Positions 1 to 64,000 of a stretch of DNA of 64,000 nt are shown here, piece by piece. The position numbers and the translations under genes were made by a program. The stretch is from Escherichia phage EC.P1. Within the stretch, counting starts at the first letter, position 1, and each line of letters starts with the position of its first letter. The DNA lies in the sequence record PQ657772.1; one strand, given 5' to 3'. The notes under the pieces are model-generated. The model made no database searches. It was not told where the DNA came from and saw only the letters and a program-made list of their open reading frames with translations.

Positions 1-256
1 AATATCTTCGATGTATAAACAGATTCCACCTCGATCATTTAACACAAGCCAATCACCAAAACCACAACTGATGTTGCATATATTAAATTCTTCAATACCA
101 TCCGGTGAATACGCAATGAATGGACATATTTCATCTGATATACCATTTACATAGTTATTACATATTAAATCAAATGTATGTGAACTATAAGAATTATCAG
201 TACTGAAAATGTGCATTAATGAACTAGATAGAATTACTATTGTTTTTTCCCACATT
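1..256 (-). CDS. hypothetical protein (partial; 3' end beyond window start)
   Basis: Minus-strand open frame from ATG at 256 (MWEKTIVILSSSLMHIFSTDNS...) running off the window edge; absent from ORF track because truncated. Confidence 0.4.
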
Positions 257-333
257 TTTAAAAAATCGTTATTCACAACAACTACTCCATGTCAGTGTTG
301 TAATTAAATTATATCACCGAATCAAGATATGTC

Positions 334-639
334 TCATGAGATTCGCATTTCATCCAGATATAAACTACATGCTTCGAAATTGTTGTCAGCACTTAAACCT
401 AAATCAACCATCAGACCACAATGCGTTCCACAGAATTTCTTTATGTATAGTTTCTTATTGTTTGTACCTAAGTCGTATACATATTCATTTTCGAAAATAG
501 TTTTTAAATCATTACAAATACTTTTTACTATCTTCATTACATCATTATGATACTCATATGGTATTCCATCTAGTTCATCAATGATAATAGCAAAACCATT
601 GTCATAGTACTTTAGTTTATTGAATGTTTGTATATCCAT
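334..639 (-). CDS. hypothetical protein
   Basis: Track ORF 101 aa; tiles minus-strand gene series. Confidence 0.55.
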   Translation of the reverse strand: MDIQTFNKLKYYDNGFAIIIDELDGIPYEYHNDVMKIVKSICNDLKTIFENEYVYDLGTNNKKLYIKKFCGTHCGLMVDLGLSADNNFEACSLYLDEMRIS

Positions 640-936
640 TTAATATATAATCTCACTTACTTCTATGGTGTAGACACCATCATCAGTCATTAATCTAACT
701 GCAACTTTAATATTACTAGACATTCGTGTAACTATCAATCCAATAATTATACCATTCTTTAAAGTACCATTATGGTATCTAACTTTTACTTCAGTTTTAT
801 TATCAATTAAGTATCTTCTAATTATGTGTATTTCCGTTCTAAACAGTTCTAAATAAACTTCACTATACTCCTTATCAGAACCATCAGCACAGCTATACAA
901 TAAATGTACCTGTTCTAACAAAAGTTTTAAATTCAT
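640..936 (-). CDS. hypothetical protein
   Basis: Track ORF 98 aa; ATGA-type junction with upstream gene. Confidence 0.55.
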   Translation of the reverse strand: MNLKLLLEQVHLLYSCADGSDKEYSEVYLELFRTEIHIIRRYLIDNKTEVKVRYHNGTLKNGIIIGLIVTRMSSNIKVAVRLMTDDGVYTIEVSEIIY

Positions 937-1292
937 AAGAACCTCACAGATTTAATATTACTTGTTACATGTTTAAACACAGTGTTATTGAATACATAAC
1001 AAATAGTATTAAGAGATTTATAAAAATTAACATCAGTTATTACTGCTTTGGAACCATTGATTAAGCACTGTGATGACGGTAATTTATTTTCTAATATATT
1101 CTTTTCATCTGAACAAAGTGTTCCAATACAATCATAATATAAAGGCTCACCAACTTTATCAGTACTAAGAAAATCGAAAGCAAGATCATCTATTAGTTTT
1201 ATGTAATTGAATAAATTTTGATAGTACTCATTCATTGTCAATCCTCTTGAATTTAGCATTATTCGAATAAGTATATGAATGTCCAAAATCAT
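933..1292 (-). CDS. hypothetical protein
   Basis: Track ORF 119 aa; start may be internal because it overlaps 1228..1479. Confidence 0.5.
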   Translation of the reverse strand: MILDIHILIRIMLNSRGLTMNEYYQNLFNYIKLIDDLAFDFLSTDKVGEPLYYDCIGTLCSDEKNILENKLPSSQCLINGSKAVITDVNFYKSLNTICYVFNNTVFKHVTSNIKSVRFL

Positions 1293-1479
1293 TTACACCA
1301 TGCACATTCAATACACCGTCGATGAAATAGATTCGGTCAATGGTGAGTTCACGTTTATAATCCGAATCATCATACCAGCACAGAACACGAATACCTTTGT
1401 ACTTTGTCGTTAGCTCTTTTTCTAATGTAACTAAGTACTCGACATAACTTTTGAATAGCTCTAAGTCCTGTTCAAACAT
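1228..1479 (-). CDS. hypothetical protein
   Basis: Track ORF 83 aa. Confidence 0.45.
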   Translation of the reverse strand: MFEQDLELFKSYVEYLVTLEKELTTKYKGIRVLCWYDDSDYKRELTIDRIYFIDGVLNVHGVNDFGHSYTYSNNAKFKRIDNE

Positions 1480-1739
1480 CAGTGTTCCTCGTATAATTCC
1501 ATGTCATCAACTCCAACTTGGCGAATTGCAGTACTTCTTTTAAATGTACCTTTTTCATATAAACATACAGTTAAACGTATTTCACACTTCAATGCACTGT
1601 AATAAATCATATCAATAACACCATATGTTTCATACATTTCTAAGTATACATTTCGTCCTAAGTACTTTTCTTCTAAATCAGTAATTAGACTATTGATAAG
1701 ATTACCTATCTGTGATATATCTGTGTGAAATTTATCCAT
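1479..1739 (-). CDS. hypothetical protein
   Basis: Track ORF 86 aa. Confidence 0.55.
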   Translation of the reverse strand: MDKFHTDISQIGNLINSLITDLEEKYLGRNVYLEMYETYGVIDMIYYSALKCEIRLTVCLYEKGTFKRSTAIRQVGVDDMELYEEH

Positions 1740-1897
1740 TACAATAATCCTCTCACATAAAACATTGATGAAAATAGATAATCTTCAGTACTGGAATTTA
1801 GTAGTTTATTAAAATTATAATTTTTATGTTTATTTTCATACAAAGACATTCTGTAGTATCTTTCTATATTTTCTAAGTAGTCTTTTCGTAATAACAT
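1739..1897 (-). CDS. hypothetical small protein (52 aa)
   Basis: Hand-translated ORF (MLLRKDYLENIERYY...) filling a 225-bp gap; TAATG overlap with downstream start; weak RBS. Confidence 0.25.
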   Translation of the reverse strand: MLLRKDYLENIERYYRMSLYENKHKNYNFNKLLNSSTEDYLFSSMFYVRGLL

Positions 1898-1928
1898 CTG
1901 TGTTGTTACATTCACTATAATGTACCTT

Positions 1929-1960
1929 AAAAGAAAAAGGGACCAATATATGATCCCTTT
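1929..1960 (-). terminator. intrinsic terminator downstream of PNK gene
   Basis: Hairpin AAAGGGA-loop-TCCCTTT followed by U-run on the minus-strand transcript. Confidence 0.5.
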
Positions 1961-1964
1961 TGTA

Positions 1965-62813: not shown

Positions 62814-63002
62814 TTACAGTTTATGAATTAATTCTTTATCTAAGCGATAGCGTACATTATTAATGGTAACAGCATTATTTTTAATGCTACGCTGTACGGG
62901 TCCACCAGCAATAACAAACGTTGCTTTATTGCCCCGAACAATGATAGCACTTCCAGGATTACCGAAATCATCTTGTACTAAAATACTTGATAAGTTTTCC
63001 AT
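62814..63002 (-). CDS. hypothetical protein
   Basis: Track ORF 62 aa. Confidence 0.55.
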   Translation of the reverse strand: MENLSSILVQDDFGNPGSAIIVRGNKATFVIAGGPVQRSIKNNAVTINNVRYRLDKELIHKL

Positions 63003-63020
63003 TTTTATTTCCTCTTAGTA

Positions 63021-63077
63021 GGGGAAGATGTTTCCCCTTGATGCAAGTACTATAACAGTACTGAAAACTAAATGCAA
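63021..63077 (-). promoter_or_regulatory. promoter (TTGCAT-17-TATAGT) plus 5'-UTR hairpin
   Basis: Minus-strand read upstream of 62814..63002. Confidence 0.5.
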
Positions 63078-63080
63078 GTA

Positions 63081-63437
63081 CTATGATAAAATCATGATAG
63101 GATATTCACTATCGATCAGTACCTCGAATCCGAAACCTTCGTACCATTCTTTAAGATTAAAGGCGTTATCTTCTCCCGTATCGCATTCTAAGATGATACA
63201 ATCTGAATCATCGGCGGCATCAATAAAGGCATTCATTAATTCGTTACCTTCACCATTGCCCCGACTATCAGGATCAACATAAAGAGAATCAATAAACGCT
63301 ACACGGTCATAATCAAGATCCGGTGCAATGATTCCACGTTTAACAAACCAGTACTGCAATTGTGCTACTTTGCCCTGTACCTGATAACCAGTGATCTCGC
63401 CATTGTCAGTAGTACGCGTGATATGTTGTATTCCCAT
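63081..63437 (-). CDS. small GNAT-like acetyltransferase (putative)
   Basis: Motif-A-like VDPDSRGNGEGNELMNAFIDAA; short for a complete GNAT fold. Confidence 0.4.
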   Translation of the reverse strand: MGIQHITRTTDNGEITGYQVQGKVAQLQYWFVKRGIIAPDLDYDRVAFIDSLYVDPDSRGNGEGNELMNAFIDAADDSDCIILECDTGEDNAFNLKEWYEGFGFEVLIDSEYPIMILS

Positions 63438-63466
63438 GATTACTATCCTCAGTTAAGATATAAAAC

Positions 63467-63494
63467 ATTATACACTATCTTTCAGTACTGTCAA
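63467..63494 (-). promoter_or_regulatory. promoter (TTGACA-16-TATAAT), no hairpin
   Basis: Minus-strand read upstream of 63081..63437. Confidence 0.55.
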
Positions 63495-63500
63495 TACTTT

Positions 63501-63758
63501 TTATCTCATAGATCTATGCCAACAATTACGCGGATCTCTTTTAAAAGTACTATCATGATCCTCCTGGCAAGTAATACAATACATGCACCCTATAACGGCC
63601 TGGCGTCGATTCTCAGGGATTTTATCGCCGCAGTCGAGGCAATGTACCAGTGATTCTCTTTGTGCGTTAATTTGCTTTCTAGCGTGGTTAACGGCTGCCT
63701 GAATCACTGCGTGAATCTCGTCTTGTTCGGCCCCGTCTTTCGCGTATCCTACTGCCAT
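63501..63758 (-). CDS. DksA/TraR-family C4 zinc-finger protein
   Basis: CLDCGDKIPENRRQAVIGCMYCITC: two CxxC pairs flanking the IPxxRR motif typical of TraR/DksA. Confidence 0.75.
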   Translation of the reverse strand: MAVGYAKDGAEQDEIHAVIQAAVNHARKQINAQRESLVHCLDCGDKIPENRRQAVIGCMYCITCQEDHDSTFKRDPRNCWHRSMR

Positions 63759-63914
63759 TATTTTAACCTCATTATAAAAATACTATAGTACTGTAATGCT
63801 ACAATAATACTACTAGTGTTTATCTTATTCAAACCATATGATACTACATATCCACCAGCATTACCACGGATAGTAACGCCTTTGTACTGTCTATATAAAT
63901 TCAACTGCGTATAT

Positions 63915-64000
63915 TGCCTTTGATCAAGAATTGATCAGAATTATACGCCTTATGCTAAATTGATCCAGTACTTTTTGATCATTTATTGATCGATATTATA
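63915..64000. repeat. cluster of five TTGATC(N) / GATC sites at the window edge
   Basis: TTGATCAAGAATTGATCAG...TTGATCCAG...TTGATCATTTATTGATCGAT within about 90 bp. Confidence 0.5.

Follow-up and report, generated by a model that had tools for sequence, protein, structure and literature searches.

The 64,000-nt stretch of Escherichia phage EC.P1 analyzed here (PQ657772.1, positions 1 to 64,000, referred to below as the window) is the left end of the genome of an Asteriusvirus jumbo phage of the 121Q/PBECO4 group, and it is dense in one short palindrome, AGTACT. The first 25 kb share 98% identity with Escherichia phage vB_Ec-M-J (EcMJ), the closest relative used, whose 357-kb unique genome is the basis of all EcMJ counts given below. 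The minus strand carries all genes of the window. Positions 54.9 to 64 kb lie within a direct terminal repeat of the EcMJ type, 21.5 kb long, and the repeat has been confirmed experimentally in the near-identical phage fEgEco12 (PMC13070987). Downstream on the minus strand come an array of small paralogues and many genes without an assigned function and, farther downstream, genes for a Dam-family methylase, a cytidylyltransferase-like protein, an endonuclease, an RNA ligase, and a polynucleotide kinase. The features on which the analysis turns are as follows.

1 to 64000, either strand: AGTACT, 217 sites, 44 of them as CAGTACTG; consensus TTCAGTACTGAA
54978 to 64000, minus strand: inner part of the terminal repeat; small units of one gene with its own sigma-70 promoter; 61 AGTACT (6.8/kb)
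49004 to 54977, minus strand: most of the tandem array of paralogues of about 70 to 85 amino acids, without AGTACT; GTAC near chance (2.5/kb)
37354 to 46028, minus strand: ACT-free block of 8,675 bp and about 20 genes; zero sense-strand ACT (no plus-strand AGT)
13101 to 13625, minus strand: Dam-family (PF05869) DNA adenine methyltransferase; a role in reading or writing the motif was weighed, and nothing tied the enzyme to it
6675 to 8918, minus strand: AGTACT-free, GTAC-poor island with an endonuclease-family gene (7788 to 8720, phrog_681) and two function-unassigned genes

AGTACT excess in the window and in related phages

A preliminary description, made from the letters of the window alone, had called AGTACT over-represented, and counting agrees. 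Dinucleotide shuffles predict 17.0 ± 4.5 copies where 217 are present (none of 100 shuffles reached that number), CAGTACTG occurs 44 times against 0.69 expected, and by order-1 Markov ratio AGTACT is the highest of all hexamers (12.5-fold). The ratio to an order-3 Markov model, in which the motif's own sub-words are already contained, is 2.4-fold. An order-4 model predicts 182 copies, seemingly explaining the count, and was rejected as a null since it includes the motif's own 5-mers. The GTAC core alone is in threefold excess, and 26 of the 64 palindromic hexamers do not occur at all. EcMJ has 983 AGTACT against 111 expected and 220 CAGTACTG against 5.4, so that enrichment is nested around the 4-bp core (GTAC, 2.1-fold; AGTACT, 8.8-fold; CAGTACTG, 41-fold). 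The density in the phage is about 2.8/kb; a 50-kb sample of Escherichia coli K-12 has three copies (0.06/kb).

The excess does not arise from what the genes encode. Called genes hold 172 AGTACT, which is 3.4-fold more than remain when synonymous codons are shuffled within each gene (50.9 ± 6.3) and compares with 22.7 ± 4.9 when codon order is shuffled. As had been claimed, all three frames are used, with 74 sites read as Ser-Thr, 58 as x-Val-Leu, and 40 as (Q/K/E)-Tyr; synonymous shuffling leaves 22, 15, and 14, respectively, an enrichment of 3- to 4-fold in every frame that bears out the earlier statement that no single protein motif is responsible. Noncoding DNA in the window is denser still, with 44 sites at 6.8/kb versus about 3.0/kb in genes. 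The preliminary description had named, as fatal to its claim, a count within about twofold of expectation once the codons of one gene family (family A) were set aside. This is not what is seen: the 101 genes without a paralogue in the window contain 125 AGTACT, and 34.7 ± 5.4 after synonymous shuffling. Codon usage, dipeptides, and a single protein family were rejected as the cause on the evidence of the two shuffles and the paralogue-free genes, and the data support an excess that belongs to the DNA itself rather than one that follows from codon usage or from a single protein motif.

These counts also bear on a wider neutral account, in which the sites would be left by codon or dipeptide usage, by biased repair of the Dcm/Vsr kind, or by a spreading mini-element. 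Amino acid sequence does contribute, as evidenced by the difference between the synonymous and codon-order shuffles (50.9 and 22.7), but the enrichment in each frame persists in genes without paralogues, and noncoding DNA is denser than coding DNA. Repair bias was rejected because one-mismatch neighbors of AGTACT are not depleted: eight of nine neighbor pairs stand at or above expectation (AGTATT/AATACT at 1.33-fold), the exception being AGGACT/AGTCCT at 0.52. Conservation ends about 4 nt to either side of the hexamer, and therefore the repeated unit is not a mobile element; a mini-element origin was excluded on this ground. Sites are, moreover, conserved above background, as are their positions in promoters. 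We consider a neutral origin extremely improbable.

The full consensus, TTCAGTACTGAA, is a 12-bp palindrome and the most frequent 12-mer both in EcMJ (18 copies) and in phage RaK2. The flanks of AGTACT are symmetric in each frame, with C at -1 and G at +1, a T-rich left side, and an A-rich right side, and coding sites show this symmetry too. YAGTACTR outnumbers RAGTACTY in EcMJ by 472 to 118. One flank rule is common to four genera of related phages, in all of which G at -1 is disfavored (3 to 8%). AGTACT is not a polar word of the Chi or KOPS type, which would be asymmetric and strand-skewed; both the hexamer and its flanks are symmetric.

Sites are spread with little regard to gene structure. 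In EcMJ the density is 2 to 3/kb throughout and in both gene orientations but climbs at both genome ends: the terminal repeat has 6.7/kb, and so do the 7 kb that precede the right repeat. Along genes and over gene-length classes it is flat, and no association was found with start codons, stop codons, or gene length. Spacing between sites is near random, with a mild excess at 20 to 25 bp that comes chiefly from terminal-repeat promoters, and a helical or long-range spacing rule was rejected. The spacing of 70 to 200 bp given earlier was overstated, since sites lie on average 295 bp apart over the whole window, and 148 bp apart only within its share of the terminal repeat. The example positions held to within 13 nt (199, 1787, 3978, 4230, 5274, 5664, 9171, 12537, 12970, 13171, 13333, and 13575), and 54978 to 64000 is indeed the densest zone.

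Two gaps had been noted, a near-absence at 6743 to 8720 and a sparse stretch in a paralogue array; both are real, with zero sites in 6675 to 8918 and 49004 to 54977. The largest gap (37021 to 46154) had been overlooked, and it exists because the ACT-free block lies within it. GTAC is at no more than chance level at 6.7 to 8.9 kb and 49.0 to 55.0 kb, and these two gaps look like compositionally younger DNA; 6675 to 8918 in particular looks like an insertion of foreign composition. The paralogue family comprises 26 genes at 45555 to 54749, most of them in tandem and encoding about 65 to 90 amino acids. As a separate observation, the counterpart in EcMJ of the AGTACT-free array (23402 to 28013) has no CGG on its sense strand for 4.6 kb.

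Among palindromes, AGTACT ranks first (3- to 11-fold) in Asteriusvirus, Eneladusvirus, Mimasvirus, and Alcyoneusvirus, as it does in every metagenomic locus whose major capsid protein is at least 80% identical. It stands at or below expectation in PA5oct (1 versus 11.3), XacN1 (0 versus 6.3), and nearly all relatives at 63 to 69% capsid identity. The trait occurs in phages of Escherichia, Klebsiella, Cronobacter, Pectobacterium, and Yersinia and not in Pseudomonas or Xanthomonas relatives. Between genera (67% nucleotide identity), 20 to 34% of site positions are kept, versus 14 to 15% for composition-matched hexamers; density is therefore conserved over four genera while most positions turn over. 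Selection by restriction enzymes commonly strips phage genomes of short palindromes. That about 1,000 copies of one palindrome have been kept over four genera, while 26 of the 64 palindromic hexamers have been lost from this phage, therefore argues for a strong, conserved function. No earlier report of the AGTACT excess in these phages, or of the ACT-free block, was found in the literature searched.

Other words show unusual frequencies in the same genomes. GCGC has no copy in the window and none in EcMJ (216 expected), versus 6.8/kb in the K-12 sample; it is missing from all four AGTACT-rich genera, but PA5oct, XacN1, and the majority of distant relatives do have it. Its absence was scored in the window, EcMJ, L009, L011, L012, L014, and L018 to L031. 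Two distant environmental relatives, L036 (IMG/VR contig 3300022602_000084) and L033, have a weaker AGTACT excess of about threefold; GCGC is nearly missing from L036 (1 versus 63 expected) but not from L033. CCATGG, GCATGC, TGGCCA, GGTCTC, GAGGAG, CAGCTG, and CTGCAG are also absent or nearly so from the 357-kb genome.

The confinement of the trait to enterobacterial phages invites the idea that a protein of Enterobacterales hosts binds the sites, the phage genome acting as its sink or as its activator, for example, to block cell division. SlmA is the obvious candidate, as its site, GTGAGTACTCAC, is a 12-bp palindrome centered on AGTACT (PMC3020112), and the pre-early promoters described below are active before any phage protein is made. 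SlmA, however, requires G, T, A, and G at positions 1, 2, 4, and 5, with a purine between them at position 3 (PMC3020112), and the phage consensus has T, T, and C at positions 1 to 3. SlmA sites were therefore rejected: GTRAGYRCTYAC occurs 0 times in 357 kb, GAGTACTC accounts for 5 of 983 sites, and position 3 holds C in 46% of sites and G in 8%. Also, the promoters are near consensus and would not need an activator. A host reader thus seems very unlikely.

AGTACT boxes in the terminal-repeat promoters

In the promoters of the small terminal-repeat units, AGTACT takes fixed positions. Ten of the 11 strong sigma-70 promoters of the terminal repeat in the window carry a box, versus 4 of 29 promoter-like matches elsewhere. 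Boxes lie directly 5' of the -35 element or overlapping it and 1 nt 5' of TATAAT; relative to the -10 hexamer, the window has them at -27 (three), -17 (two, as TTGACAGTACT), -7 (six), and -31 (one). The two promoter contexts singled out in the preliminary description, TTGACAGTACT and AGTACTGTATAAT, were both found, with the box at fixed positions. Representative promoters are listed here.

62778 to 62810, minus strand: twin-box promoter; AGTACT at 62805 to 62810 overlaps the 5' edge of a -35-like TGGACA (62800 to 62805)
62785 to 62790, minus strand: inner box of the same promoter, 1 nt 5' of TATAAT (62778 to 62783); boxes 20 bp apart
60776 to 60812, minus strand: twin-box promoter; AGTACT at 60807 to 60812 and 60783 to 60788, TATAAT at 60776 to 60781
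63467 to 63494, minus strand: TTGACAGTACT-type promoter; box at 63484 to 63489 overlaps the 3' end of the -35 TTGACA (63489 to 63494), TATAAT at 63467 to 63472
58625 to 58652, minus strand: TTGACA-N9-AGTACT-G-TATAAT promoter; box at 58632 to 58637
58138 to 58143, 61214 to 61219, and 61485 to 61490: boxes of the same TTGACA-N9-AGTACT-G-TATAAT design
58934 to 58966, minus strand: AAAAAGTACTTGCAA-type promoter; box at 58961 to 58966 directly 5' of the -35; like design at 61961 to 61966
62746 to 62765, minus strand: 8-bp hairpin at the transcript 5' end, GGGGAGAA-AUGA-UUCUCCCC; after it come a ribosome-binding site and an ATG (62726 to 62728)

EcMJ repeats the pattern: 15 of its promoters carry a box at -27, and 16 carry one at -7. 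Pectobacterium phage CBB, which belongs to another genus and is about 67% identical in conserved genes, has a box in 16 of 20 promoter-like sites of its terminal repeat; 14 have one at -29 to -27, and 13 have one at -7. Most of the CBB sites have both boxes, 21 bp apart, despite differing spacer sequences. The CBB promoters were described earlier, without mention of the palindrome (PMC5259590). Twin boxes 20 to 21 bp apart, or two helical turns, are thus found in most CBB and several Asteriusvirus terminal-repeat promoters. As expected of an operator, a dyad-symmetric site sits at fixed positions inside the RNA polymerase footprint (-27/-28, -17, and -7 in the window, EcMJ, and CBB), and sites are paired at integral helical turns (20 to 21 bp). 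We rate AGTACT as an iterated palindrome that doubles as an operator-like box.

Several other features of the terminal repeat were recorded. A G-rich 8-bp hairpin (GGGGAGAA-loop-UUCUCCCC, about -14 kcal/mol) is conserved between promoter and ribosome-binding site, and like hairpins follow most terminal-repeat promoters (e.g., at about 58590 to 58612 and about 61440 to 61462, minus strand). The gene at 59103 to 59744 (minus strand) has a weak match to a protein kinase domain (PF00069, E-value of 0.005, below the Pfam cutoff); related records label it a Ser/Thr kinase, and it recalls the early kinase gp0.7 of T7. Six Campylobacter phage records were among the matches in a megablast search with 55000 to 63000. 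The E. coli Chi word, CCACCAGC, occurs on the plus strand of the window at 4771, 56209, 56432, 58011, 59916, 62003, 62902, and 63852, and GCTGGTGG occurs at 14368. EcMJ has 23 plus-strand copies versus 1.7 expected and 11 minus-strand copies versus 1.3, nine of the plus copies being within the terminal repeat; this excess suggests protection of linear DNA ends from RecBCD.

The fixed positions raise the question of whether the box is simply a promoter element, read by RNA polymerase through host sigma-70 and alpha or through a phage sigma factor, with the intragenic copies being incidental or cryptic promoter fragments. The box at -19 to -14 falls in the contact zone of sigma region 3, another lies just upstream of -35, and the phage sigma factor has only regions 2 and 3 detectable. 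Yet an asymmetric machine needs no palindrome, nor the same one at two positions; the roughly 850 intragenic sites, which are evenly spread and occur in both orientations, would be left unexplained, and coding sites share the flank symmetry. We regard this possibility as quite unlikely.

The even spread along genes and the nested enrichment on the 4-bp core would, in turn, suit a preferred site of action of a dyad-symmetric enzyme, whether a T4-type type II topoisomerase (with a putative A^GTAC^T cut and 4-base stagger), a nuclease, a nickase, or an unrecognized methylase, whose action on phage DNA would be favored by the high site density. Both topoisomerase II subunits are encoded by the phage, and the symmetry would suit any homodimeric enzyme. 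Such an enzyme leaves the fixed positions beside -35 and -10 in two genera unexplained, and both recognizable methylases are accounted for as CpG type and Dam type. The C5 methylase of the phage is a short DNMT3/HhaI-like protein; in RaK2, CpG methylation was attributed to this phage C5-methylase family by bisulfite analysis, reported as data not shown (PMC3622015). Virion DNA of a 98 to 99% identical phage is cut normally by ten enzymes (PMC13070987). AGTACT was consequently rejected as a methylase target, since neither the Dam-type nor the CpG-type site lies within it and the virion DNA of a near-identical phage cuts normally. On balance, an enzyme site appears unlikely.

Among the roles put forward in the preliminary description, a modification target is unsupported, and a binding site for a dimeric protein fits best, given the 12-bp symmetry and the twin boxes in two genera; for a recombination or packaging signal, nothing turned up that spoke either way. 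We therefore tentatively favor, with somewhat less than even confidence, the explanation that AGTACT is the recognition site of a clade-specific dimeric DNA-binding protein, serving both as a twin operator at pre-early promoters and as a mark borne by the whole genome. A homodimer specific to RaK2-like enterobacterial jumbo phages would read TTCAGTACTGAA on double-stranded DNA. Binding at twin boxes, whether by one dimer or by a dimer of dimers, would mask the contacts of RNA polymerase, and such occupancy could switch off all pre-early promoters together, the genes of the terminal repeat being the first transcribed. At the roughly 850 sites spread evenly in genes, the same protein might coat or mark phage DNA, and coating could serve compaction, protection, or discrimination of phage from host DNA.

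Several points weigh against this explanation. The role of the binding protein is inferred, as family searches among annotated regulators, the endonuclease, terminal-repeat genes, and genes neighboring the sigma factor brought up no candidate for it. About 85% of sites are intragenic, with a flat profile and no tie to gene starts or ends, and a promoter repressor alone is therefore insufficient. Positional conservation is only about twofold over background, and pairs at 20 to 25 bp are mildly enriched genome-wide (26 versus 17 expected). Because the promoters of any one genome are paralogues of one another, independent evidence comes from the cross-genus comparison alone. Finally, the same footprint would be left by an enzyme with dyad symmetry, for example, a nuclease or a type II topoisomerase. 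If found, the reader protein could reveal how the first genes are shut off or how a phage recognizes its own unmodified DNA.

A block without ACT

The largest AGTACT gap reflects the absence of a shorter word. Across the ACT-free block, whose edges fall inside genes, ACT is the sole missing trinucleotide, in every frame, and its complement occurs on the same strand at normal density. The flanks have about 20 ACT/kb. Threonine is encoded by ACT in 0 of 106 codons in the block, versus 201 of 493 in flanking genes. The corresponding gap in EcMJ is 173 times the mean ACT spacing, and no other trinucleotide exceeds 23 times. Absence of ACT was checked in five Asteriusvirus genomes, and counterparts of the block lie as follows.

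28769 to 37225 of EcMJ: counterpart of the ACT-free block
4226 to 11844 of L015: counterpart of the ACT-free block
4226 to 11436 of L017: counterpart of the ACT-free block

With 19% divergence, the equivalent blocks in PBECO4 and in Salmonella phage SD-15_S21 are nonetheless free of ACT. The 1,344 substitutions relative to PBECO4 create no ACT, whereas random placement gives 54.6 ± 7.1. Purifying selection thus keeps ACT out of the block in diverged Asteriusvirus lineages. About 20 ACT have arisen in the block of ph0011 by single-base changes, which suggests relaxed selection. Homologues of the block DNA and of one block protein come from Asteriusvirus records only, and no equivalent block is present in the first 45 kb of CBB. 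Pfam and PHROGs searches with 20 open reading frames of the block returned no function and no recognizable family, and an IMG/VR search with one block protein gave no match.

A ban on ACT that is confined to one strand points to RNA and, as far as sequence can tell, to block transcripts that would be immune to an ACU-cutting RNase. Known toxin RNases have specificities for ACA (MazF), UAC or AC[U/G/C] (ChpB), UAC[G/U] (Salmonella MazF), and also GCU (PMC10864209, PMC8546651), and among the specificities in the literature searched there was none for ACU alone. ChpB and MazF were rejected as the selecting RNases; they do not fit because ACA, ACG, and ACC persist in the block.

Could AGTACT itself act in RNA? 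Self-complementary AGUACU copies might pair with one another or be cut by an RNase, tuning the decay of mRNA. A palindrome yields the same RNA word from either strand, from which symmetric flanks would follow; density is greatest in the pre-early genes, and enterobacterial MazF-family toxins cut U^ACU or U^AC (PMC10864209, PMC8546651). Nevertheless, many boxes precede the transcription start and hold fixed places in the promoter, and the block retains the motif in a form that is not self-complementary. GTAC density there is unchanged, with AGTACA present 46 times, in all frames and at the same density, and TGTACT never; these AGTACA sites are conserved at 64%, versus a background of 42 to 45%. 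A role in RNA accordingly has little probability for AGTACT.

We can also entertain a broader proposal, which we consider doubtful, that joins the two words. RaK2-like phages would label their own unmodified DNA by nothing but sequence, with an AGTACT about every 360 bp and no GCGC, the reverse of the host; a dimeric reader would silence the pre-early promoters and distinguish phage DNA, and, in Asteriusvirus, transcripts of the neighboring early block, being free of ACU, would survive an ACU-cutting RNase from either the host or the phage.

Comparison with known systems

The closest likeness is to HIP1, a palindrome that has gone unexplained for decades. HIP1 (GCGATCGC, from cyanobacteria) is likewise short, in vast excess genome-wide, and present in all frames and between genes; its site conservation favors selection over neutral replenishment, and it has no explained function (PMC5861425, PMC4390886). 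AGTACT shows the same hallmarks, namely, a roughly 10-fold genome-wide excess, occurrence in all frames and in noncoding DNA, and a modest conservation of sites between genomes. It differs in being carried by a phage, AT-rich, and fixed in position at promoters. It also differs in having no evident cognate methylase; where HIP1 has an orphan methyltransferase, only the Dam-family and short DNMT3/HhaI-like C5 enzymes were found here. The phage system is the more tractable one, as it offers a small genome, synchronous infection, a promoter readout, and motif-free relatives as controls.

A long terminal repeat full of strong, host-type early promoters is known from SPO1 and T5. In SPO1, the abundant phage protein TF1 is thought to bind early promoters and sites elsewhere, shutting off early transcription. 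TF1 recognizes hydroxymethyluracil DNA with a loose preference, whereas the AGTACT phages have ordinary DNA and a sharp palindrome of 6 to 12 bp, and no HU-like or other binding protein was identified in the AGTACT phage.

Chi is a genome-wide "self" word that is asymmetric and read in one orientation. DNA uptake sequences (PMC1939737) resemble AGTACT as short words that are selected to high density, are missing from recent acquisitions, and set self apart from foreign DNA. Both are asymmetric and act in a single orientation, unlike AGTACT, which is palindromic and has a role at promoters as well. The SlmA site of E. coli, GTGAGTACTCAC, is a 12-bp palindrome with an identical center whose reader is a dimeric TetR-family protein (PMC3020112); it occurs about 50 times on the chromosome, compared with about 1,000 AGTACT in the phage, which lack the flanks that SlmA requires.

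Finally, the ACT-free block is a separate lead to phage-host conflict at the RNA level. It resembles the ACA-less mRNAs that resist MazF, in which a three-base word is wholly missing from the sense strand, in all frames and over whole genes, and it differs from them in extending over 8.7 kb and about 20 genes and in being carried by a phage.

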